From: Candidatus Nitrosopumilus koreensis AR1
Lineage (GTDB): Archaea > Thermoproteota > Nitrososphaeria > Nitrososphaerales > Nitrosopumilaceae
Direction of reading: 5' to 3'
Length of the DNA stretch: 32,000 bases
Assembly: GCF_000299365.1 (NCBI RefSeq)
Contig: NC_018655.1
Span: 1,230,001-1,262,000 of the forward strand
Of this stretch, positions 3,584 through 31,986 are shown piece by piece. A model generated the notes under the pieces. It searched no databases. It saw only the letters and a program-made list of their open reading frames with translations, and was not told the DNA's origin. Numbering within the stretch: position 1 is the first letter of the stretch; the number at the start of each line of letters is the position of its first letter. The translations under genes were made by a program, and so were the position numbers.

Positions 3584-6093
3584 TTGAAACTATCATGTCC
3601 CAAATGCAAGTCCAAAATAGAGATTCAAAAGACTTTCAATAAAAAAATGCATGTATCTTGTGGAAATTGTGGAATAGAAGACCTGCTAGAATTTTCAAAA
3701 AACATAGACGAGGTGTTTTTAGAGTTTCTTTCAAGATACGACAAGGGCTTAGTAGTTGAAAATGGATTGTCTGAAGGTCTCAAAAATGAAGGAATTGTAC
3801 GTGATGAAAGCGAAATTAGAGATATGATTGGCAAAAACAAACCAGACAAAATAACTGAAGAAATTTTATTTTCAAAAAAAGATTATGTCTCGCAATACAA
3901 AGTTTTGAGCAATCCTGAGCCCAAGATGGGCTCTAAAGTAGAAGATTTAGGGTTAGATGAGGCAATTACCAAACACCTCAAGGAATTAGGAATTAATCAA
4001 TTTTACAAATTTCAAGAAGAGGCAATCATGGAAATTGCATATGGGGAAAATATTGTCATTGAAGCACCTACTGCTTCAGGAAAAACAGAGGCATTTTTAA
4101 TTCCAGTTATTCAAAAAATTAAAAAAATACAAGTGATGGCAAGGTCTTTGCAATTTTTGTTTATCCAACAAAGGCACTTGCAAGAGATCAGTTTCCAAAG
4201 ATCAAAAAATTTGCAGAAAAAATTGGAATTAACGTAAAGGTGTTTGACGGAGATACAAAGATTACAGAAAGAAGAGACATCATAGACAATCCTCCACACA
4301 TTCTTGTAACAAACTTTGATGTTTTACATTATCACATGTGGCATCAAACGAAATTTTCATCAATACTCAGTTCCACAAGAATTTTGGTAACAGATGAAGC
4401 ACATGTGTATTCAGGTATTTTTGGCTCTAATGTACACTACATCATAAAAAGGCTCAAAAGAATTTGCACAAACAAACTGCAGTTTGTAGCCGCATCAGCC
4501 ACACTAGATGATGCCAAAGGATTCTGTGAGAAACTGTTTGGAGAAAAAATGCAAAAAATTCAAGGCTCTGGAAAAAAAGGCCAAACAGACTTTGCAATGT
4601 TGTTTCCATCACTTCGGACACAAAGATCACTGATGGTTGAATTGACAAAAAAGCTTACTCAAAAAAATCACAAAACTATGGTCTTTAATAACTCACATCT
4701 AAATTCTGAATTACTAGCTATTCAAGCCAAAAAACAAAAAGTCAACATCAAGGTTCACAGGGCCGGATTAATGGCAAATTATCGAACATTTGTTGAAAAA
4801 CAGTTCAAAGAAGACATGCTTGATGCAATTTCATGCACACCTACTCTTGAATTGGGCATAGATGTAGGAAATGTTGATTGTGTGATATCATCAACCATAC
4901 CAGTAAATCGACTTATTCAGAGAATAGGTAGGGCTGCAAGAAAGGGACAGAAAGGATATGCGTTTTTGACATTAGGAAATGATCCAATTTCACAATACTA
5001 CAAAAATCACCCTGATGACTATTTTGAGGATGTAGAGAAAACATACATCGATCCCAAAAATCCCTTTGTAGAAGAATTTCAAGTGTTGGCAATGGCTTGT
5101 GACAGACCAATATCAAAACATGAGCTCAAAGAACACCAAGAAGTAATAGAGCACCACATCATCAAAGGAACACTAAAAGAATTCAACAATAGAATAATTC
5201 CAAATTTTGACAAAATTAATTCTATTCTCAACGAATACAGCATAAGAGGAATAGGAAAATCAGTAGACATTTTCTTAAATAACAAAAAAGTAGGAGATAG
5301 AATTCTGCCAATCGCACTAGAAGAACTGCATAAAGATGCAATCTATTTTCTAGCAGGAATTAGATACAAAGTAAAAGAGTTTGACTATCCAGAAAAAAAT
5401 TATGCAAAGATTGAGAAAATTCCCAGAGATTATCCATACTATACAAAGGCATTAACTGAAGAGTGGCCCACAATTGAAACAGTTTTTGAGAAAAGAGAAG
5501 CAGGTGGAGTTGAAGTTGCATTTTGTAAATTACATATTGAGAAAAAAGTATATGGATATGTCAATATCGAACTTGGACAAGAAGTAGCTCAAGGAGAAAA
5601 AGTTCTACTAGAAAATCCACTAGAATATAATTTCGTTACAAAGGGAATTGTATTTCATGCACCAAGACCTCTCAAAGTAATAGAAGAGTCTGAAGATGAA
5701 GAATACACAGAGGCAAGCGGATATCATGCAACTGAACATGTGGTAATTGAAGGAAGCAATATGATCACAGGAGGGGCATCTCAAGACTTGGGCGGCATAT
5801 CACTAGGCACATCAGGCTTGATTTTCATTTATGATGGAGCAATTGGCGGAAGTGGTGCAAGCAAAGCACTCTATGACAGATTTGAGAAAGCACTTGAAAG
5901 AAGTATGTTTATTGTAAAGGAATGTCCATGCAAAAACGAAGCAGGCTGTCCTCGATGTACGTTCTCATACAGATGTGGAAACAACAATGAGTACTTGCAC
6001 AAATATTCTTCTTTAGAAATTTTGGAGAGAATTAACAATGGTGAAAAAACACAACTAATTGATCCTACAGAAGGAGACAGGCCTCTTGTTTGA
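3584..6093 (+). pseudogene. DEXH helicase with N-terminal Zn-ribbon and C-terminal DUF1998/MZB Zn domain (MrfA/YprA-like), split by a 1-nt frameshift in an A7 run
   Basis: ORFs 3584-4237 and 4240-6093. Motif I APTASGKTEAF is in frame 1. Motif Ia VYPTKALARDQ is read only in the second frame from 4123 on. DEAH (VTDEAH) and the C-terminal CPCKNEAGCPRC...C cluster follow. The frames join if A7 at 4121-4127 is read as A8. TTG start is needed to keep the CPKC...CGNC ribbon. Confidence 0.85.
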
Positions 6094-12705: not shown

Positions 12706-13066
12706 GTGGATGAAGTAAAATTTGAAGAGTTATGCAAACAAATCTTTGCAATAAATGAAAAAATCCGTTTTGTAGGTATTGTAGAAAATAACAAGTTTTT
12801 TTATAAAATGAGAGAAGGAATAAACTCATATCTTTCTAAAAAAACAAACAGAAGAATCTCTTCTAGGAGCATTGAAAAGATGGGAAATTAGAGATGAATT
12901 TAAAGAAGAGATTGGAGATGCGTTTTACGCAATGGCAATGTATGAACAAACAAAACGATTTACAATGAAGATGGGAAAGGGATTGTTGTGCATCAGTACA
13001 GAAATAGATGTTGATAACGATGAGATTGTCATGAAGGTACTAAATGAAACCAGTAAGGTATTATGA
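12706..13066 (+). pseudogene. Small conserved hypothetical protein (~120 aa) split by a frameshift in an A7 run; distant paralog of 31600-31986
   Basis: ORFs 12706-12891 and 12872-13066 overlap. Reading A7 (12838-12844) as A6 gives a continuous ...SYLSKKQTEESLLGALKRWEIRDEF... Similar length and pattern to the 128-aa ORF at the window end. GTG start. Confidence 0.55.
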
Positions 13067-13165: not shown

Positions 13166-14827
13166 ATGAAATGGAAAACACTACAACACAACGGAATCTT
13201 ATTTCCTCCTGCCTATGAGGCACAGGGTATTAAAATAAAGATCAAAGGAGAAAAAATCAATCTCAGTTTAGAGCAGGAAGAGATGGTATACCAATGGGCA
13301 AAAAAGAAAGACACCCCATATGCTCAAGACAAAGTTTTTCAAAAAAATTTTACAGCAGATTTTGCAAAAACACTAGATTCTAAATTTAAAAAAATTTCAT
13401 ATGAAGATATTGATTTTTCTGATGCTTACAAGCTTGTAGACAAAGAAAAAGATCTCAAAGAGATGATGACAAAAGAAGAAAAAAAGGCAATTGCTGCAAA
13501 AAGAAAAGAGCTTCGTGAAGAACTCAAAGCAAAATACGGAGTTGCCATCATGGATGGAATAAAAGTCGAAGTTGGAAACTACATGGCAGAACCACCAGGA
13601 ATTTTTATTGGCAGAGGAGAGCATCCATTACGAGGACGATGGAAACCTCGTGTTACACCAAAAGATGTCACGCTAAACATGGGAAAAGAGGCAAAAATTC
13701 CTGAAGGAAAATGGGGTAAAATTATTCATGATAAAGATTCAATGTGGCTTGCAAGTTGGATGGATTTTCTTACACAAAAAAGAAAGTATGTTTGGCTTGC
13801 AGACACTGCAGGACTAAAACAAGACAGAGACAAAGAAAAGTATGAAAAAGCAGTAAAGCTTGCAAAAGAAATTGAAAAAATCAAAGATAGAATTGTAAAA
13901 GATATGAAGAGTGCGGATCCAAAAATTAGTAGAATTGCTACTGCATGTTATTTGATTTACAGAACTGCTATGAGAGTGGGAGATGAAAAGGATCCAGAAG
14001 AAGCAGATACTGTTGGTGCAACTACCCTAAGAAAAGAACATATCAAAATTACTTCAGATGCAATAGAATTTGACTTTTTAGGAAAAGACAGCGTCAGATG
14101 GCAAGAGACAGTCAAAGCAGAAGGACAAGACAAACAATTTCAAGAAAACCTCAAGAAATTAGTAGAAAAGAAAAAACCAAAAGATGAGATTTTTCACGAT
14201 ATAACTTCACGACATGTTAATGCATATTATTCTAGTATTGTAAAGGGACTTACTGCAAAAGTATTCAGAACATATCTGGCAACAACCGTGGTCAAAGATT
14301 ATCTAAAAGAACATGACAACATGAAGGGAAAATCAGACAATGAGAAACTATACCATGCAAAACTAGCAAATCTTGAAGCCGCAATTATGTGTAATCACAA
14401 ACGAACCATACCAAAAACGTTTGAGCAGTCATTACAAAAAAAGAAAGATACTCTCAAGAACAGGGAAAAAGAAAAAGCATGGGAGAAAACACAGCAGACC
14501 CTCAAAAAAGTAGAATCAACTGAGCCAAAGACAGAGACTCAAAAAAAGAACAAGGCAAAAAGAATCAAGACATTAAATGAGCAAATCAAGAAACAAAAAC
14601 AAAAACACAAAGAACGAATTGAGAAACTAAAGTTACAGGTTGACTTGTCAGAAAGGACTAGGGATTACAATCTTGGAACGTCACTTAGAAATTACATAGA
14701 TCCACGTGTTTTCAAGGCATGGACTGATGAGGTAGGTGCAGAATGGGAGAAATTGTATACTGCTGCACTTCAAAAGAAGTTCCTCTGGGTCAAAAATGAA
14801 AACGTAAAGTGGAAGGAAATTAAATAA
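13166..14827 (+). CDS. top1: DNA topoisomerase IB (eukaryotic type)
   Basis: 553 aa. N-terminal WKTLQHNGILFPP, core AxxYLIYRTAMRVGDEK, lysine-rich linker, and C-terminal LGTSLRNYIDPRV carrying the catalytic Tyr context (SKxNYxDPR). Confidence 0.92.
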   Translation: MKWKTLQHNGILFPPAYEAQGIKIKIKGEKINLSLEQEEMVYQWAKKKDTPYAQDKVFQKNFTADFAKTLDSKFKKISYEDIDFSDAYKLVDKEKDLKEMMTKEEKKAIAAKRKELREELKAKYGVAIMDGIKVEVGNYMAEPPGIFIGRGEHPLRGRWKPRVTPKDVTLNMGKEAKIPEGKWGKIIHDKDSMWLASWMDFLTQKRKYVWLADTAGLKQDRDKEKYEKAVKLAKEIEKIKDRIVKDMKSADPKISRIATACYLIYRTAMRVGDEKDPEEADTVGATTLRKEHIKITSDAIEFDFLGKDSVRWQETVKAEGQDKQFQENLKKLVEKKKPKDEIFHDITSRHVNAYYSSIVKGLTAKVFRTYLATTVVKDYLKEHDNMKGKSDNEKLYHAKLANLEAAIMCNHKRTIPKTFEQSLQKKKDTLKNREKEKAWEKTQQTLKKVESTEPKTETQKKNKAKRIKTLNEQIKKQKQKHKERIEKLKLQVDLSERTRDYNLGTSLRNYIDPRVFKAWTDEVGAEWEKLYTAALQKKFLWVKNENVKWKEIK

Positions 14828-16593: not shown

Positions 16594-16707
16594 GCCGGGG
16601 TAGCTCAGCCTGGTTAGAGTGCCAGTTACTTGGTAAACTCTAGCGGTTCTCCAACTAAGGCAATACTCATAATCTGGAGGTCGCGAGTTCGAAACTCGCC
16701 CCCGGCA
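16594..16707 (+). tRNA. tRNA with CAT anticodon (elongator Met or Ile2) containing a 39-nt intron at a non-canonical position (30/31)
   Basis: Perfect 7-bp acceptor stem GCCGGGG/CCCCGGC. D arm GCTC-AGCCTGGTTA-GAGT, T arm GCGAG-TTCGAAA-CTCGC. Removing 16626-16664 restores the anticodon arm CCAGA-CTCATAA-TCTGG, giving a 75-nt mature tRNA. Confidence 0.85.
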
Positions 16708-18405: not shown

Positions 18406-18567
18406 TCATGATTCCTTGTGTTGAACAACCCAGTCTTTGATTGCCATGTCTGTGCGATGTTTCTGACATCTGACATGAGGACATGGAATCAATCTAGTGC
18501 ATTCTGGCTCTTCACATTTTCTATATGATCCTGGAATGTTGGTTCCTTTAGGAGAAATTAATGTCAT
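18406..18567 (-). CDS. Cys/His-rich miniprotein (53 aa)
   Basis: My own translation: MTLISPKGTNIPGSYRKCEEPECTRLIPCPHVRCQKHRTDMAIKDWVVQHKES. It starts 1 nt after the upstream miniprotein stop and is last in a five-gene string. Confidence 0.5.
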   Translation of the reverse strand: MTLISPKGTNIPGSYRKCEEPECTRLIPCPHVRCQKHRTDMAIKDWVVQHKES

Positions 18568-18568
18568 G

Positions 18569-18691
18569 TTAATTTTTTGACCGTTTAGAACTGCTCTTTT
18601 TCAAATGGGTTTTTTCGTGTTTGCGTACTTCATCAAACGTGTATGATGTTCCAATCCAATGAAAATCGCATTGACTGCATCGATACTTCAT
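18569..18691 (-). CDS. C2H2-like zinc-finger miniprotein (40 aa), MKYxCxxC...HEKTH family
   Basis: MKYRCSQCDFHWIGTSYTFDEVRKHEKTHLKKSSSKRSKN. Paralogs at 18784-18891, 27405-27632 and 31094-31210. ATGA overlap with the upstream ORF. Confidence 0.7.
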   Translation of the reverse strand: MKYRCSQCDFHWIGTSYTFDEVRKHEKTHLKKSSSKRSKN

Positions 18692-18783
18692 TTTTTAAGA
18701 CACCTACACCCACAGTCAAACATTCCAGCTTTTTCCATGCATTGTTCATGATGTTCGTTATAGCACTTGTTACAGGTTATCAT
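18688..18783 (-). CDS. Cys-rich miniprotein (31 aa), CNKCYN...MEKAGMF family
   Basis: MITCNKCYNEHHEQCMEKAGMFDCGCRCLKK. About 80 percent identical to 31012-31107, and several of the differences are synonymous. Confidence 0.7.
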   Translation of the reverse strand: MITCNKCYNEHHEQCMEKAGMFDCGCRCLKK

Positions 18784-18891
18784 CTATGAAGACCTCTTTA
18801 CCAGATGAGTCTTTTCATGGAGAAGTAATTGCTGGATGTTATCTTCAGCTGCATCCCAAGTGAAATTGCAGTGTTTGCAACGATATGTCAT
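18784..18891 (-). CDS. C2H2-like zinc-finger miniprotein (35 aa), MKYxCxxC...HEKTH family
   Basis: MTYRCKHCNFTWDAAEDNIQQLLLHEKTHLVKRSS. Its stop abuts the next start. Confidence 0.65.
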   Translation of the reverse strand: MTYRCKHCNFTWDAAEDNIQQLLLHEKTHLVKRSS

Positions 18892-19007
18892 TATTTGGCG
18901 GTACTCTCTGATTTCTTTTTTTCAGATTCTGTGAATGCATTTACATCACTAGCACTTTCGGTTTTACAAGAACCAATTTTCAGTTTTTCAAGTATTTTTT
19001 TAAACAT
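18891..19007 (-). CDS. Miniprotein (38 aa), MFKKIxEKLxxGSCKT family
   Basis: MFKKILEKLKIGSCKTESASDVNAFTESEKKKSESTAK. Paralog at 27289-27404. TAATG stop/start overlap with the next ORF. Confidence 0.6.
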   Translation of the reverse strand: MFKKILEKLKIGSCKTESASDVNAFTESEKKKSESTAK

Positions 19008-19166: not shown

Positions 19167-19295
19167 CTACTTTCTATGTTTTGGCAAACATTCTTTGCAA
19201 TATACGGGTCTATCCTGTTTTGGTTCGAAAGGAACTTCAGAATCTTTACCACAGTCAGCACATGTACATGGGTACATTTTTCTTTCTTGTGACAT
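19167..19295 (-). CDS. CxxC-x17-CxxC zinc-finger miniprotein (42 aa)
   Basis: MSQERKMYPCTCADCGKDSEVPFEPKQDRPVYCKECLPKHRK. The VPFxPxxxRPVYCxxC pattern is a known small Zn-binding domain. Confidence 0.7.
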   Translation of the reverse strand: MSQERKMYPCTCADCGKDSEVPFEPKQDRPVYCKECLPKHRK

Positions 19296-19688: not shown

Positions 19689-20633
19689 TTGCGGAATGAT
19701 TTTTTGGTTTTAGAAGTTATCAAGAGCGACTCTTTCTGCAATCGTTGTGGAAAAAATAGTGTGATTTCAGATAATGAGACAGGGGAAAGATTTTGTGATA
19801 AATGTGGTTTTGTAATTAGAGAAACATTACAATCATCAGGCCCAGAATGGAGGTCGTTTGCAAAAGAAGGAGGTACTGATCCAACCAGAACAGGAGCACC
19901 AACGTCGCTTACGATGCATGACAGAGGACTGTCCACAGTTATTAGTCAAAGTAACAGAGATGCTACTGGTAAGCCACTTTCAACATCTATGAAAAGTACC
20001 ATTGAAAGACTGCGAACTTGGGATAGCAGAAGTAAAGTAACTTCATCTGCAGATAAAAATCTCAGACAGGCACTTGGTCAGTTATCTGTACTTAAAGACA
20101 AACTTTCACTTTCTGATTCTGTAAATGAAAAAGCATCATACATTTACAGAAAAGCATTAGAAAATGGACTAGTAAAAGGCCGCTCCATATCAGCATTAAT
20201 TGCAGCATCAATATATGCAGCATGCAGAGATACTGAAACTCCTAGAACTCTAAAAGATGTTGCCGATGCAGGTAACATTAAGAAAAAAGATATTTCCAGA
20301 TGTTATAGAATATTGCATTATGAATTGGAACTCAAGATGCCTGTTGTAAATCCAATTCAATGTATTGCAAGAATTTCAAGTAAATTACGAATAACAGAAA
20401 AATCAAAGCGCTATGCAATCAAAGTACTTCAAGTTGCTCAAGAACATGAAGAAAGTGCTGGAAAAGATCCTATGGGTATTGCTGCAGCTGCATTATACCT
20501 AGCATGTGTCAAAAACAATGAATATGTAACTCAACGTGATGTTGCAGAAGCATCAAATGTTACCGAAGTCACAATAAGAAATCGATACAAAGGTCTAAGA
20601 TTAGACCAAGATACAGAATTACAGGTAAAATAG
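19689..20633 (+). CDS. tfb: Transcription initiation factor B (TFB), paralog 1
   Basis: Zn-ribbon CNRCG...CDKCG, B-reader/linker, and two cyclin-fold repeats. No ATG lies upstream of the ribbon, so the start is TTG at 19689 or 19704. Confidence 0.92.
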   Translation: MRNDFLVLEVIKSDSFCNRCGKNSVISDNETGERFCDKCGFVIRETLQSSGPEWRSFAKEGGTDPTRTGAPTSLTMHDRGLSTVISQSNRDATGKPLSTSMKSTIERLRTWDSRSKVTSSADKNLRQALGQLSVLKDKLSLSDSVNEKASYIYRKALENGLVKGRSISALIAASIYAACRDTETPRTLKDVADAGNIKKKDISRCYRILHYELELKMPVVNPIQCIARISSKLRITEKSKRYAIKVLQVAQEHEESAGKDPMGIAAAALYLACVKNNEYVTQRDVAEASNVTEVTIRNRYKGLRLDQDTELQVK

Positions 20634-20635
20634 AT

Positions 20636-21214
<579 letters not shown>

Positions 21215-25646: not shown

Positions 25647-26576
25647 CTAATTGATTGTTGAAAACAAACCCAACTTTGTTTTAAATTCACGAATTCTATT
25701 TCTTATTGAAACTGTACTGGTGTTTGCAGCTTCGGCAACTTGGGTTTGGGATTTTAGTTCTCCAGTAATCACACATGCTGCATAAATTACAGATGCTGCC
25801 AAAATTTCCGGATTTTTACCAACCGTGATTCCTGCATCTTGGGCTACAGTTAAAATTTGTGTTGCTTTGCGAATTGTTTTTTCAGATAATTCAAGTTTAC
25901 TGGTAATCTTAGAAATTAACTTTATTGGATTTACTACATTTACTGTAAATCCCAATTCTTTAAACAATATGCGATAAGCCCGAGAGATCTCTTTTCTTTT
26001 AATCACAAATTGAATGGCAATTTCTGTTAGAGATCTATCATGTTCAAGATCCTTGCATGCCGCATACAGGCATGCTGCTGCAACCGATTTTACGGTTCTG
26101 CCTCGAATAAGATTTCTCTTTATTGCCTTTCTATAAAACAGAGATGCTCGTTCAATTATAGTGTCAGATAGGCCTAATTTTGATTGTACTTTGTCAAATT
26201 CCACAAGTGCAACCCTAAGATTTTTGTCTGCCGAGTTTTTTGTTTGTGACCTACTATCCCATTTTCGTAGTCTTCCAAATATCTGAACAGTTTTTACAGG
26301 TAGAGGTTTTCCAACTGAATCTCGATTCTGTGCACCTATGATTGTGTTTAGTCCTTTGTCATGCATTTTAAGTGTCAACCCAGGACCAGTTCTTGTGTTA
26401 TCAGATGTACTTGAAATAAATCTACGATCCGTCCCTCTGTATTCAGCATTTTCTGAAATTACAAATCCACAACTTGAACAAACAGTTTCTCCAAGAATCT
26501 CATCAGTTACAAATCCAGAAGCATTACAGTAATTACAAAAAATTTTTGCTTTTTCAACTGTTGTAGTTAATGTCAA
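25647..26576 (-). CDS. tfb: Transcription initiation factor B (TFB), paralog 2 (divergent)
   Basis: Zn-ribbon CNYC...CSSCG and two cyclin-fold repeats. Clearly more divergent from TFB-1 and TFB-3 than those two are from each other. Confidence 0.92.
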   Translation of the reverse strand: MTLTTTVEKAKIFCNYCNASGFVTDEILGETVCSSCGFVISENAEYRGTDRRFISSTSDNTRTGPGLTLKMHDKGLNTIIGAQNRDSVGKPLPVKTVQIFGRLRKWDSRSQTKNSADKNLRVALVEFDKVQSKLGLSDTIIERASLFYRKAIKRNLIRGRTVKSVAAACLYAACKDLEHDRSLTEIAIQFVIKRKEISRAYRILFKELGFTVNVVNPIKLISKITSKLELSEKTIRKATQILTVAQDAGITVGKNPEILAASVIYAACVITGELKSQTQVAEAANTSTVSIRNRIREFKTKLGLFSTIN

Positions 26577-26585
26577 AAATTTTCG

Positions 26586-26750
26586 CTAAACCGTTATAGT
26601 TATTTTTTTAGCAATACAATCAGAATGAATTTCCTTATCTGTATTAATATTGCAATTGTGGCAAATAAACTCTATGGGGTTTTTACATTCAGAACAGCTT
26701 TGATATACTTCCATTCTGTTTCCACATTTTCTACAAGAGGTTATTTTCAT
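26586..26750 (-). CDS. Zn-ribbon miniprotein (54 aa) directly upstream of TFB-2
   Basis: MKITSCRKCGNRMEVYQSCSECKNPIEFICHNCNINTDKEIHSDCIAKKITITV. Its stop is 9 nt before the TFB-2 start. Confidence 0.55.
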   Translation of the reverse strand: MKITSCRKCGNRMEVYQSCSECKNPIEFICHNCNINTDKEIHSDCIAKKITITV

Positions 26751-26829: not shown

Positions 26830-27012
26830 TTAAAGTTCATGAGATATGTACTCTACATCATCCTCATCAGATAATGCATCATGAAATTTTTGAAATATTG
26901 AATCATCCATTTTAGATAGAAATAACATAAATTCTAATTCCAATACTTTCAAACGATTCATTTCTGCTAATTCTTTTTCCATTATTTTTGATACGATTAA
27001 TTGTTGATTCAT
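26830..27012 (-). CDS. Small helical protein, EMNRLKxLELEF family
   Basis: 60-aa ORF. EKELAEMNRLKVLELEFMLFLSKMDDSIFQKFHDAL aligns with the N-terminal half of 30674-30928. Confidence 0.6.
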   Translation of the reverse strand: MNQQLIVSKIMEKELAEMNRLKVLELEFMLFLSKMDDSIFQKFHDALSDEDDVEYISHEL

Positions 27013-27231
27013 TATAATTTGATAATTGGTAACCCATGTAAAAGATGGGAAAGATGTAATTCTATTCGTCTTTTTTAGAAGAGTCGTCTTTCTTTGGCTC
27101 TTCTTTTTTCTCGTCGTTACCGACTACTATTGTTGGGTTCTGTTCTTTATTTTCCATATCTATATAGATATTAAACTACATATATACTTAGTCAAAGAAG
27201 TTTATAGATAGTCAATTATATGTATAGAAAA

Positions 27232-27404: not shown

Positions 27405-27632
27405 ATGAAATATCAATGCAAAACATGTAACTTTCATTGGGAAGGCACTTCACAAACTTTTGACGAGGTACGTGATCATGAAAAAACTCATTTAAAAAAT
27501 AAAACTACTGTTCGTTGTAAAGTTTGTAATGCATCAAAGAGTATGATTGATGTAGAGCATAATTCAGATGAAAAATGGGAGTGTCAAAATTGTGGGAACA
27601 TACTTGATATGCAAGGTCTAATTAGTTCATAG
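27405..27632 (+). CDS. C2H2-like finger (MKYxCxxC...HEKTH family) fused to a C-terminal CxxC...CxxC Zn-ribbon
   Basis: 75-aa ORF MKYQCKTCNFHWEGTSQTFDEVRDHEKTHLKNKTTVRCKVCNAS...WECQNCGNILD. Confidence 0.75.
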   Translation: MKYQCKTCNFHWEGTSQTFDEVRDHEKTHLKNKTTVRCKVCNASKSMIDVEHNSDEKWECQNCGNILDMQGLISS

Positions 27633-29138: not shown

Positions 29139-29414
29139 TTAACGTTTAGATTTTTTGGCCTTACGTTTAGTAGTCTTTGCTGCTTTCTTAGTAGTTCGTT
29201 TTGCTTTAGTAGCTGCTTTCTTTGCTGTACGTTTAGTAGTTCGTTTTGCTTTAGTAGCTGCTTTCTTTGCTGTACGTTTAGTAGTTCGTTTTGCTTTAGT
29301 AGCTGCTTTCTTTGCTGTACGTTTAGTAGTTCGTTTTGCTTTAGTAGCTGCTTTCTTTGCTGTACGTTTTACTTTTTTTGCAGTTTTTTTGATAGCTTTT
29401 TTGGCTGTTGCCAT
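29139..29414 (-). CDS. Lys/Ala/Thr-rich basic repeat protein (histone H1/Hc1-like composition)
   Basis: 91 aa, four perfect 15-aa units KRTAKKAATKAKRTT, about 45 percent Lys+Arg. The antisense ORF (29155-29442) is a shadow. Confidence 0.7.
   Translation of the reverse strand: MATAKKAIKKTAKKVKRTAKKAATKAKRTTKRTAKKAATKAKRTTKRTAKKAATKAKRTTKRTAKKAATKAKRTTKKAAKTTKRKAKKSKR
29188..29369. repeat. Perfect 45-bp tandem repeat, about 4 copies, inside the Lys-rich gene
   Basis: TAGTAGTTCG recurs at 29189, 29234, 29279 and 29324, and the units are identical at every base. The flanks are degenerate copies. Confidence 0.9.
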
Positions 29415-29742: not shown

Positions 29743-30663
29743 TTAAGATTCTAACTTGAAATTTGGCTGTTTTTTTAATCCTTTGTACCTATTTCTTATG
29801 GTCACTTCTGTTACTCCTGCCGCCTCGGCAAGATCCCGTTGAGTAATAGAGCCACCATGTTTCAAACAAGCAATGTATAATGCAGTTGCAGCAAGCCCCA
29901 TAGGGTCTTTTCCAGCAGATTCTTTGTTATTCTGAGCTTCTTGAAGTACTTTGATTGCATGTCGTTTGATTTTTTCAGATAGTTCCAATTTGCTTGAGAT
30001 TCTCGATATGCATTGAATTGAATTTACAACAGGCATCTTGAGTTCCAATTCATGATGCAATAATCTGTAACATCGAGCAATATCTTTACGTTTAACATTT
30101 GCAGCATCTGCAACATCTTTTAGAGTTCTAGGAGTTTCAGTATCTCTGCATGCTGCATATATTGATGCAGCAATCATTGCAGAAATAGATCTTCCACGAA
30201 CTAGTTTTTTCTCTAATGCTTTTCTATACAAATATGCAGCTTTTTCAAGAACATTTGTAGAAAGTGCAATCTTGTCTTTTATTCTAGTTAATTCACCGAG
30301 TGCTTGTCTGAGATTTCTATCTTGAGGTTCATGAGCTTGGCTTCTGCTATCCCAAGTCCGTAATCGTTCAATGGTGCTTTTCATAGATGTTGATAGTGGC
30401 TTGCCAGTAGCATCCTTGTTTATTGGATTAATTACAGTAGATAGCCCCATATCATGTATCAAAAGTGATGAGGGTGCTCCAGTTCTTGCGGGATTTGCCC
30501 CACTATCTGTCTGAAATGCCCTCCATTCTGGACCTGACTCATTTGATTTTTCAGAAACAACATATCCACATTTACCACAAAACTGTTCTCCAGTAACATT
30601 ATCAGTCTGCATGGAATTTTTTCCACAGCGTAGACAGTTAGAATCTGTAATTGAGACCACCAT
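29743..30663 (-). CDS. tfb: Transcription initiation factor B (TFB), paralog 3 (close to paralog 1)
   Basis: Zn-ribbon CLRCG...CGKCG and two cyclin-fold repeats. Long identical blocks with TFB-1 (GKPLSTSMKSTIERLRTWDSRS, IAASIYAACRDTETPRTLKDVADA). Confidence 0.92.
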   Translation of the reverse strand: MVVSITDSNCLRCGKNSMQTDNVTGEQFCGKCGYVVSEKSNESGPEWRAFQTDSGANPARTGAPSSLLIHDMGLSTVINPINKDATGKPLSTSMKSTIERLRTWDSRSQAHEPQDRNLRQALGELTRIKDKIALSTNVLEKAAYLYRKALEKKLVRGRSISAMIAASIYAACRDTETPRTLKDVADAANVKRKDIARCYRLLHHELELKMPVVNSIQCISRISSKLELSEKIKRHAIKVLQEAQNNKESAGKDPMGLAATALYIACLKHGGSITQRDLAEAAGVTEVTIRNRYKGLKKQPNFKLES

Positions 30664-30673
30664 GAAAGGTGCT

Positions 30674-30928
30674 TTATGCTGCCACCTTTTTTATTGGGAT
30701 TTTAAGTGATGAAACATTTCTAATTTTTTCATCTTGTGATTCTAATTTTGAGTCAGATTGTGTATTGTCAATATCTGCATTCTCAAAGATTATATTTTCA
30801 TTCGTTAATGCCGCACGAAATTTTTGAGACATTGTTTCATCCATTCGGGTTTTAAAAAACAAGAATTCTAATTCTAATCTTTTCAGCCTATTCATTTCAG
30901 ATAATTCTTCTTCAATTCTTTTTGTCAT
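30674..30928 (-). CDS. Small protein: EMNRLKxLELEF-family helical N-half plus an Alba-C-terminus-like tail
   Basis: 84-aa ORF ending 10 nt before the TFB-3 start. The N-half aligns with 26830-27012. The tail LESQDEKIRNVSSLKIPIKKV matches the Alba tail LESQDGRKRDVSTIEIPISKKV. Confidence 0.65.
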   Translation of the reverse strand: MTKRIEEELSEMNRLKRLELEFLFFKTRMDETMSQKFRAALTNENIIFENADIDNTQSDSKLESQDEKIRNVSSLKIPIKKVAA

Positions 30929-31011
30929 GATCTATGTTCCATTCATCACACTTAAAGATGATTGTATTTGGAACGGATTTGCATTTTGTGAAGAAAAAAA
31001 TGAGCGGAAAA

Positions 31012-31107
31012 TCATTTTTTTAAACAATCACACCCACAAGAAAACATTCCAGCTTTTTCCATGCATTGATCATGATGCCCATTATAGCATTTGTTACAAA
31101 TCACCAT
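31012..31107 (-). CDS. Cys-rich miniprotein (31 aa), CNKCYN...MEKAGMF family
   Basis: MVICNKCYNGHHDQCMEKAGMFSCGCDCLKK. Overlaps the upstream miniprotein by 14 nt. Confidence 0.7.
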   Translation of the reverse strand: MVICNKCYNGHHDQCMEKAGMFSCGCDCLKK

Positions 31108-31210
31108 TAGAACTCACTTTTTTATGGGTTTTTTCGTGTTCCAACACTTTGGAAAATGTATCAGAAAATCCATCCCATTGGAATTTACATTTTTGACAAT
31201 TGTATTTCAT
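31094..31210 (-). CDS. C2H2-like zinc-finger miniprotein (38 aa), MKYxCxxC...HEKTH family
   Basis: MKYNCQKCKFQWDGFSDTFSKVLEHEKTHKKVSSNGDL. The start codon directly abuts the Alba stop (0-nt spacer). Confidence 0.7.
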   Translation of the reverse strand: MKYNCQKCKFQWDGFSDTFSKVLEHEKTHKKVSSNGDL

Positions 31211-31492
31211 CTATTTTACCTTCTTAGAAATTGGAATTTCTATGGTGGAGACATCTCTTTTTCGCCCATCTTGAGATTCTAGTGATTCAGAATTGATTTT
31301 GACACATCCTACTTCAAATGCGTCTGTTTTTTTTAAGAGGACCTGAGTGACATCTACTGCAAGTCCAATACTCATACCTCTGGCCTTAATGACTATGGAA
31401 TCTAATGAAGATAGTTGGATTATTGCAGAGGTGACATATGACATTAACGGTTTTTTTCCGATAAAAATTGTATCATGTGGTTTATCTAACAT
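31211..31492 (-). CDS. albA: Chromatin/RNA-binding protein Alba
   Basis: 93 aa. IFIGKKPLMSYVTSAIIQL...IVIKARGMSIGLAVDVTQVL... is the canonical Alba pattern. Confidence 0.88.
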   Translation of the reverse strand: MLDKPHDTIFIGKKPLMSYVTSAIIQLSSLDSIVIKARGMSIGLAVDVTQVLLKKTDAFEVGCVKINSESLESQDGRKRDVSTIEIPISKKVK

Positions 31493-31599
31493 ACAAAATT
31501 AGATGTAATGCCTCATTTAAAGTGGGTGTGTGAATCTAGTCACAAATATCATAAAAATGAAAAGAGAACATCATCTTTTCTTGTTATTGTTATTCAATA

Positions 31600-31986
31600 C
31601 TAATTTTGATGCAAATCAATTATGTCAAATAGATCTTCAGCTCGTTTGATTATTTTTGAAGAACTGGTGTCTTTGTCAGCACTAATCAATACTAGATGAT
31701 TGGTAGTGGGAACACTTATGATCATGACATTTTTCCTTCGTGATGTAATATAGTCAATTGGGCCAAGAATTTCATCTAGTTCTTGTCTCATTCGTAAATC
31801 AAGCATCATTTGCATATAGACCATCTTGATTTTTTCATCATCTAACAATCTTGGAATTCCTGATTTGAATTTGCTTGCTACTGGTCGTCCTAATTTGTTA
31901 ATTACTGCAACATGCCTAATTTCATCCATTTGAACCAGTTTAGCACATGCATTGTCTAATGAACTAATTTTTTCAACTGAATTCAT
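31600..31986 (-). CDS. Conserved hypothetical protein (128 aa), weakly similar to 12706-13066
   Basis: Clean ATG ORF. It shares the pattern IRxVxVxN...G...L...R.E...G..Y...L.IS..D with the frameshifted gene at 12.7 kb. The fold guess (roadblock/LC7-like) is speculative. Confidence 0.55.
   Translation of the reverse strand: MNSVEKISSLDNACAKLVQMDEIRHVAVINKLGRPVASKFKSGIPRLLDDEKIKMVYMQMMLDLRMRQELDEILGPIDYITSRRKNVMIISVPTTNHLVLISADKDTSSSKIIKRAEDLFDIIDLHQN

Follow-up and report, generated by a model that had tools for sequence, protein, structure and literature searches.

Lineage-restricted miniproteins among the TFB, TBP and Alba genes of Candidatus Nitrosopumilus koreensis AR1, two of them in apparent operons with particular TFB paralogs

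Ammonia-oxidizing archaea carry 8-11 TFB paralogs (PMC4084955), and the dominant TFB of Nitrosopumilus maritimus changes between planktonic growth and life in a biofilm (PMC12448741). A stretch of 32,000 nucleotides (nt) from Candidatus Nitrosopumilus koreensis AR1 (contig NC_018655.1, positions 1,230,001 to 1,262,000; hereafter the window) raises the question of whether the very small proteins encoded there between the gene for the chromatin protein Alba and a TFB gene are dedicated to particular TFB paralogs, as was proposed in the original prediction from this DNA. The string of genes in question comprises the following features:

31211..31492, minus strand: Alba, 93 amino acids (aa), with a Pfam Alba match
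31094..31210, minus strand: m38, a 38-aa C2H2-like zinc-finger miniprotein with the pattern C5-x2-C8-x16-H25-x3-H29
31012..31107, minus strand: m31, a 31-aa Cys6His miniprotein, putatively metal-binding
31011-30929: the gap between m31 and h84, 83 nt
30674..30928, minus strand: h84, 84 aa
29743..30663, minus strand: TFB3, a TFB/TFIIB paralog of 306 aa

The coordinates, strand and spacings first proposed for this string are borne out to the base. The overall account favored here, with confidence slightly above even, is that the three small open reading frames (ORFs) are real genes, that h84 is a chimera, that the string is divided into two transcription units, that h84 and a second miniprotein, ZnRw, would act as accessories of individual TFBs, and that m38 and m31 would have a more general role.

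The Alba stop codon (TAG) is followed directly by the m38 ATG (a spacer of 0 nt), the m38 and m31 ORFs overlap by 14 nt, and h84 ends 10 nt before TFB3. The complete string, with its order and spacing kept, occurs in at least nine other genomes or contigs, including loci from a TFB3 scan of species-representative genomes that returned 63 loci (L004-L007 and L009), N. sp. SW (L078), and metagenome contigs (L079, L080 and L088). Pooled pairwise Nei-Gojobori comparison over 10 loci gives ratios of nonsynonymous to synonymous divergence (dN/dS) of 0.10 for Alba, 0.18 for m38, 0.04 for m31 and 0.05 for residues 1-45 of h84, with dS at ~0.4 for Alba and at 0.7-1.0 for the three small genes. The m38, m31 and h84 ORFs are real genes, a point on which the prediction is upheld by both the purifying selection (dN/dS 0.04-0.18) and the conservation of the string. 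Chance ORFs in AT-rich intergenic DNA might be suspected from the very short length of the frames, the low GC content (32-35%) and the absence of m31 from contig annotations; this reading is effectively refuted by the dN/dS values at such dS, and the invariance of the Cys/His ligands across paralogs and the existence of hundreds of database clusters leave it barely credible. The h84 sequence matches the AR1 protein NKOR_07570 exactly, and the DNA of the string is identical in two NCBI draft contigs whose gene calls include m38 and h84 and omit m31, so that the warning that annotation easily misses these ORFs applies to m31 and not to m38.

Profile searches returned 122 database clusters for m38, 231 for the h family to which h84 belongs, and only 17 representative clusters for m31 among 1.84 billion proteins. 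Most of these clusters are metagenome proteins without an organism name, and those that are named all come from Nitrosopumilus-type archaea, except for one labelled Bathyarchaeota. No Pfam domain is recorded for any m38 or h cluster, a Pfam search of m38, m31 and h84 gave no credible match, no sequence relatives of m38, m31 or h were found in the PDB at E < 0.2, and an Rfam scan of the string found no RNA family. The m38, m31 and h families are uncharacterized and limited to Nitrosopumilaceae.

The two larger genes of the string are readily assigned. The 93-aa ORF is a bona fide Alba (PF01918; 44.4 bits against a cut-off of 25, E 1.4e-11, residues 8-62), and the 306-aa ORF is a TFB/TFIIB with an N-terminal Zn ribbon (Zn_Ribbon_TF, 41.1 bits, E 1.3e-10) and two cyclin-like TFIIB repeats (TFIIB, 142.3 bits in 2 stretches, E 5e-42) that groups with the TFBs of full-string loci in a neighbor-joining tree without bootstrap. 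For m38, a 12-sequence alignment shows M1, Y3, C5, C8, F10, W12, H25, E26, K27 and H29 to be invariant, and across 82 sequences the ligands C5, C8 and H25 are invariant and H29 is at least 90% conserved. The two Cys and two His ligands of a classical C2H2 zinc finger are thus present, and the C8-H25 spacer of 16 residues departs from the canonical C-x2-4-C-x12-H-x3-5-H spacing. AlphaFold2 predicts a beta-beta-alpha arrangement (strands 2-4 and 11-13, helix 20-33) with a predicted local distance difference test score (pLDDT) of 82, and the top Foldseek matches are C2H2 fingers (SALL3, ZNF473 and BCL11A ZF0; root-mean-square deviation 1.8-2.2 A, TMq ~0.52), all at E > 3 with a very short query. 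Among the 82 members, Pfam C2H2 models gave matches to zf-H2C2_2 in 13 (best E 0.0013) and to zf-H2C2_5 in 10, all below threshold, and m38 is accordingly C2H2-like rather than a member of the family, with a beta-beta-alpha finger predicted by the model. In m31, residues C4, C7, H12, C15, C24, C26 and C28 are invariant within 31 residues, identity between species is 84-87%, and searches of the PDB and Pfam gave no relative.

Of known kinds, archaeal zinc-finger miniproteins of the AFV1p06 type come closest to these families. AFV1p06 (PDB 2LVH) binds zinc and DNA, and its authors found no homologue in Thaumarchaeota (PMC3541406). Like the AFV1p06 family, m38 is a single small archaeon-encoded protein with CxxC...HxxxH ligands and a predicted beta-hairpin and helix; it differs in having a ligand spacer of 16 rather than 12 residues and in falling below every Pfam C2H2 cut-off. 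The haloarchaeal zinc-finger micro-protein HVO_2753 (PDB 6YDH), which uses CPxCG-type motifs, is likewise very small, Cys-rich and easily missed by annotation, but shows only a weak fold match to m38 (rank 12, TMq 0.33) and no sequence relation.

The gene that adjoins TFB3 is made of two parts:

30794..30928, minus strand: h84 residues 1-45, the helical-hairpin core of the h family
30674..30793, minus strand: h84 residues 46-84, a relic of the Alba 3' end, fused in frame

AlphaFold2 places helices at residues 2-26 and 31-41 of h84 (mean pLDDT per 10-residue block 88, 94, 81 and 77) and predicts the tail (46-84) to be disordered, and a fold search with h84 gave no match. A ribbon-helix-helix fold for the h family was considered and rejected, as the predicted helix at 2-26 leaves no N-terminal strand and there is no Pfam or PDB sequence match. 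Most of the 231 h-family clusters are ~58 aa long, end in ...DLQYV and lack the tail. The last 20 residues of h84 share 12/20 identities (60%) with the C-terminus of the neighboring Alba (BLASTP, E 3e-6), and hhalign pairs h tail residues 58-86 with Alba 61-93 at E 3.8e-4 and a probability of only 36%. The h84 protein is not itself an Alba (PF01918), since it has no Pfam Alba match and only its last ~30 residues align to Alba 61-93; the tail descends from the beta3-beta4 end of Alba, of which only ~35 decayed residues are kept, too little to satisfy the Alba profile.

Comparison of loci suggests how this came about. In type-B loci (L008, L012, L013, L047, L048 and L054), an intact Alba lies directly upstream and ends 9-11 nt before the TFB3 ATG, and in a seventh such locus (L086) Alba ends ~36 nt upstream of TFB3. 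The h-type genes of type-A loci stop 9-12 nt short of the TFB3 ATG (h-TFB3 spacing overall 9-13 nt, in at least 10 loci), and the DNA of their tails is colinear with the last ~35 codons of the type-B Alba genes. Constraint on the h84 tail is relaxed (dN/dS 0.43 versus 0.05 in the core); in 11 of 12 lineages the tail is nevertheless uninterrupted as far as the ancestral stop, and the other two frames hold 23 and 63 stops over 406 tail codons. Both type-A and type-B arrangements have the small gene CPx42 upstream of Alba, which identifies the Alba of the string as the positional ortholog of the sister Alba that abuts TFB3. Taken together, the homology of the tail to Alba, the colinear DNA, the type-B Alba and CPx42 point to an ancestral Alba-TFB3 pair into which m38-m31 and a 5' portion of h intruded; the h frame now reads through what is left of the Alba 3' end. 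On this evidence, h84 is a chimera of a 45-aa h hairpin and the decayed last ~35 codons of Alba, and as a relic rather than a second Alba of the kind seen in the Alba1/Alba2 paralog pairs of Sulfolobus. Either an insertion that duplicated the Alba 3' end or recombination of two loci that each held an Alba could have given rise to the type-A arrangement. In a more distant lineage, to which the h-to-TFB3 arrangement thus extends, a divergent h gene (80 aa, 49% identical) has a 4-nt overlap with the start of a TFB3-like gene (L115 and L116).

The tail also contains a conserved stretch of DNA:

30685..30695, minus strand: A-rich block AATAAAAAAGG, ~30 nt upstream of the TFB3 ATG and inside the h84 tail

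In type-A loci there is almost no DNA-level variation in this block, in the 10-nt spacer or in the last ~35 nt of h84 (AATAAAAAAGGTGGC...), and a similar ATAAA(A/G)AGG block occurs in type-B Alba 3' ends. The block is a possible candidate for an internal TFB3 promoter or start signal. The Alba relic may have been kept open to its old stop as a carrier of TFB3 start signals, either through translational coupling or through an embedded A-rich promoter element.

The original prediction left the number of transcription units at one or two, which is consistent with the two conserved TATA-like boxes in front of genes of the string:

31515..31521, minus strand: TTTAAAT, a TATA-like box 29 nt before the Alba start codon, a putative leaderless-type promoter
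30951..30956, minus strand: (C)TTTAAG(T), a TATA-like box 28 nt before the h84 start codon, the putative promoter of h84-TFB3

The block GTTTAAATGAGG at the Alba box is kept with 1-2 substitutions in 9 aligned loci in which the flanks vary, and the box reads TATAAAT in three of the nine. At the h84 box, CTTAAGTG is kept in 9/9 aligned loci within an otherwise variable spacer. No TATA-like box precedes m38 or m31, both of which abut or overlap their upstream genes. The spacing of -28/-29 recurs in the window at PII, K38, E31 and h84 (for KR91, a TTAAAG at about -28/-29 was noted on visual inspection and escaped the scan), and this placement fits leaderless mRNAs. Boxes at Alba and h84 together with their absence at m38 and m31 indicate two units, and the string is likely to be transcribed as two leaderless-type units, Alba-m38-m31 and h84-TFB3.

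The prediction that the miniprotein families recur next to the other TFB genes of the window proved correct, with paralogs of m38, m31 and h all found in the following arrangements:

18406..19007, minus strand: K38-m38-m31-m38-C53 cassette, with ORFs of 38, 35, 31, 40 and 53 aa that abut or overlap by 0-4 nt
18891-18784, minus strand: m38 paralog
18783-18688, minus strand: m31 paralog
18691-18569, minus strand: m38 paralog
19689-20633, plus strand: TFB1
20636-21214, plus strand: TBP
27157-25647, minus strand: the E31-h60-ZnRw-TFB2 series
27062-27157, minus strand: E31, a 31-aa acidic, Lys-rich ORF (MENKEQNPT...) with TATATA 29 nt upstream of its ATG
26830..27012, minus strand: h60, a second h-family gene upstream of ZnRw-TFB2 (jackhmmer E 4e-27)
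26586..26750, minus strand: ZnRw, a Cys-rich zinc-ribbon miniprotein of 54 aa, 9 nt upstream of TFB2
25647-26576, minus strand: TFB2
27405..27632, plus strand: NKOR_07550, an m38::ZnR44 fusion of 75 aa, in which ZnR44 is a second Zn ribbon

The cassette is divergent from TFB1-TBP (19689-21214). TFB1 and TBP themselves, 2 nt apart, form an apparent operon, and the same pair is seen in L006 and L048. Further conserved miniprotein families were found along with those of the string (K38, ZnR44, ZnRw, C53, E31 and CPx42). Other genomes encode m38 and ZnR44 in two neighboring genes of a K38-m38-ZnR44-ZnRw-TFB2 array, from which E31 and h are divergent and which is present in at least seven distinct contigs; E31 is conserved in at least eight other loci, typically divergent from a K38-m38 cassette. 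The families K38, m38, m31, ZnR44, ZnRw, C53, E31 and h constitute a Nitrosopumilaceae-restricted set of miniproteins that occurs in tight cassettes with several copies per genome and that stays near TFB1-TBP, TFB2, TFB3 and Alba through many rearrangements.

Two members of this set show conserved operon-like adjacency to a TFB gene, namely h84 with TFB3 (9-13 nt) and ZnRw with TFB2 (13/13). For ZnRw, a TFB2-type start lies no more than 30 nt downstream on the same strand, at a spacing of 7-10 nt, in 11/11 loci and in 2/2 independent look-ups, although the 13 loci include identical or near-identical ones and represent ~8-10 distinct arrangements. For the h family, sampled through h proteins rather than through TFB, the flanks contain 16 TFB genes in 160 kb (0.10 per kb), ~15-20 times above the expectation of ~0.005-0.007 per kb genome-wide, a density obtained by dividing 8-11 TFBs per genome (PMC4084955) by the 1.64-Mb length of the AR1 record; a TFB is no more than 2 kb away in 15 of 36 distinct h loci. 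Gene context gives good support for an operon-like coupling of h84 to TFB3 and of ZnRw to TFB2, in each case a specific TFB paralog. In this arrangement, h84 would be made together with TFB3, as ZnRw would with TFB2, and each would most likely be a small accessory or modulating partner of its own TFB paralog. Such a functional partnership, as judged from gene context, is a fair possibility but less likely than not for h84 and ZnRw, and less likely still for m38 and m31.

The pattern for m38 and m31 is of another kind. Six look-ups of m38 chosen regardless of TFB found a TFB within 1 kb in two and neither TFB nor Alba within 5 kb in three, and the K38-m38 cassettes without a TFB within 5 kb lie beside Thi4/Usp, in a biotin gene cluster and beside methylmalonyl-CoA mutase. 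A K38-m38-m38-C53 cassette is found at unrelated loci in N. piranensis (L067, near Thi4/Usp) and N. sp. SW (L069, inside bioA-bioB). In gene context, the links of m38 and m31 run to Alba or to one another, and not to a TFB. They would be co-produced with Alba, and a general role as zinc-dependent miniproteins associated with nucleic acids or chromatin is more likely for them than one as TFB-specific factors. The proposal that all three miniproteins are dedicated partners or modulators of a particular TFB paralog (e.g., as an anti-factor, a recruitment factor or a Zn-dependent switch) is consequently supported only in part, by the operon-like coupling of h84 to TFB3, and fails for m38 and m31, which are also found far from TFB. 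In its full form it can still draw on the recurrence of the families beside all three TFBs of the window, on the presence of m38 within the K38-m38-ZnR44-ZnRw-TFB2 array of several genomes and on the two TFB-blind look-ups with a TFB close by; set against these are the m38 look-ups far from both TFB and Alba, the cassettes at unrelated loci, the coupling of m31 to m38 and Alba, and the many TFB3-group loci that lack these families (see below), and as a whole it is quite improbable.

Several copies per genome in unrelated contexts would also be expected if the K38-m38-(m31) cassettes were small mobile or selfish modules for which Alba and TFB are incidental targets, and the duplicated Alba 3' end that flanks the Alba-TFB3 insert and the insertion sequence (IS) elements nearby in one metagenome-assembled genome could be cited in its favor. 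The cassettes contain no transposase, integrase or nuclease, a search for terminal inverted or direct repeats found only chance-level AT-rich matches, and the miniproteins are under strong purifying selection, all of which makes mobility a very improbable explanation.

A more serious alternative is that the association reflects synteny by descent only, with unrelated small genes carried along in a region rich in TFB, TBP and Alba through segmental duplication and rearrangement and without any TFB function. A single 14-kb stretch of the window contains TFB1-TBP, TFB2, TFB3, Alba and all of the miniprotein families, the same gene set is shuffled in L006, L048, L086, L107 and L118, and cassettes are found elsewhere too. 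Mere descent accounts poorly for co-location that survives many gene orders and orientations, for the strand-conserved, operon-like spacing of ZnRw-TFB2 (7-10 nt in 13/13) and h-TFB3 (9-13 nt), and for an h tail that stays open up to a stop just before TFB3; the explanation is rather unlikely, if of real weight.

Several observations weigh against the favored account of h84 and ZnRw as TFB accessories beside more general m38 and m31. The neighborhood enrichment stems largely from one ancestral, often-rearranged region with three TFBs, TBP and Alba, so that the h/TFB loci are not independent events. Most h genes of ~58 aa, often on short contigs, have no TFB in the available sequence, and one h gene has TBP and aconitase as neighbors instead. 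In 42 of the 63 TFB3-group loci, none of these families is present in the available flanks (up to 8 kb per side), which indicates that TFB3 does not need them as neighbors; absence of the linkage in relatives, named in advance as grounds for abandoning the proposal, is thus found in part, with the full string kept in at least nine others. In one lineage (L096, an h73 variant) the tail is truncated and the TFB3 neighbor lost, and more than one route could have led to an m38-m31-h insert with an intact Alba on one side and an Alba relic on the other. The fold matches of m38 are not statistically significant, and zinc binding by m38 is putative. For Nitrosopumilus, the literature available to the analysis held no expression, transcription start site (TSS), proteomic or interaction data, and a search of it yielded nothing usable on TSS, leaderless mRNAs or small zinc-finger proteins of the genus.

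The apparent h84-TFB3 and ZnRw-TFB2 operons resemble bacterial anti-sigma/sigma-factor operons, in which a small gene is tightly co-oriented with a paralog of a promoter-specificity factor. Neither h84 nor ZnRw is homologous to anti-sigma factors or to archaeal TFB helpers such as TFE and TFB-RF1, and the comparison is a working analogy from gene context alone. In a further-reaching reading, which is speculative and unlikely, the h hairpin and ZnRw would be the first paralog-specific TFB accessory subunits or antagonists, co-translated with their cognate TFB and tuning promoter choice, and the K38/m38/m31 cassettes would be zinc-finger adaptors linking Alba chromatin to initiation.

Other features were noted around these genes. 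In many of the 42 TFB3-group loci without the miniprotein families, a gene for an 87-aa Cys-rich protein is found upstream instead; in most loci that lack Alba (L014-L045 and similar ones), a Cys-rich protein of 86-88 aa (MTEDVCDFCKG..., with a DnaJ-like CxxCxGxG motif) is encoded ~140-400 nt upstream of the TFB3 ortholog, and in L048 a gene for a Cys-rich protein with the DnaJ-like motif lies upstream of Alba-TFB3. CPx42, a 42-aa CxxC...CxxC protein, is encoded in the window at 19167-19295 on the minus strand, here upstream of the K38 cassette; in ten other loci (L006, L009, L012, L013, L048, L054, L078, L086, L088 and L107) it precedes Alba by 140-270 nt. Its displacement in the window points to a local rearrangement in N. 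koreensis, and the L078 ortholog matches Pfam zf_Tbcl_2. Just downstream of TFB3 (29139-29414, minus strand) is a gene for a 91-aa Lys/Arg/Ala/Thr-rich protein, with TTAAAG ~29 nt upstream of its ATG and four perfect 45-nt tandem repeats (29188-29369) that point to very recent expansion; the product may be a basic nucleic-acid-binding protein. DUF6659 paralogs lie within a few kb of TFB genes in L012, L013, L049, L057, L065, L066 and L123. In the window, one DUF6659 gene precedes Alba (31600-31986, minus strand), a further m38 paralog overlaps a DUF6659 start just past the window end (L001 4833-4946), and two adjacent DUF6659 fragments, possibly a frameshifted copy, lie at 12706-13066 on the plus strand just upstream of a eukaryote-type topoisomerase IB (13166-14827, plus strand), which shares the 32-kb region with three TFBs, TBP, eIF-1A and Alba. 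In L076 and L077, both from one metagenome assembly, IS elements (DDE_3, IS1595 and IS66) lie in or around the h / K38-m38-ZnR44-ZnRw-TFB2 array, with a DDE_3 between h and E31 in L077 and another that truncates TFB2 in L076. Farther away on the plus strand, an Rfam tRNA match of 48 bits spans 114 nt (16594-16707), was not found by ARAGORN and is probably an intron-containing archaeal tRNA, and a DEAD/Helicase_C/MZB helicase is split between 3584-4237, which holds the DEAD N-terminal part, and 4240-6093, a division that may reflect a frameshift, an internal stop or a gene that is truly split.

For the way in which ammonia-oxidizing archaea regulate their many TFB paralogs (PMC4084955, PMC12448741), this locus supplies concrete candidates in the form of two miniprotein families, h and ZnRw, that appear in operon-like arrangement with specific TFB paralogs. 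The locus also adds three lineage-restricted Zn/Cys miniprotein families under strong purifying selection, one of which (m31) is missing from gene calls. The chimera h84 is also a clear instance of gene birth by fusion, in which a stand-alone hairpin gene acquired the Alba 3' end, apparently because that end carried the start signals of the next gene. If true, the reading of h and ZnRw as paralog-specific accessories would give a mechanism for the use of 8-11 TFB paralogs by ammonia-oxidizing archaea.

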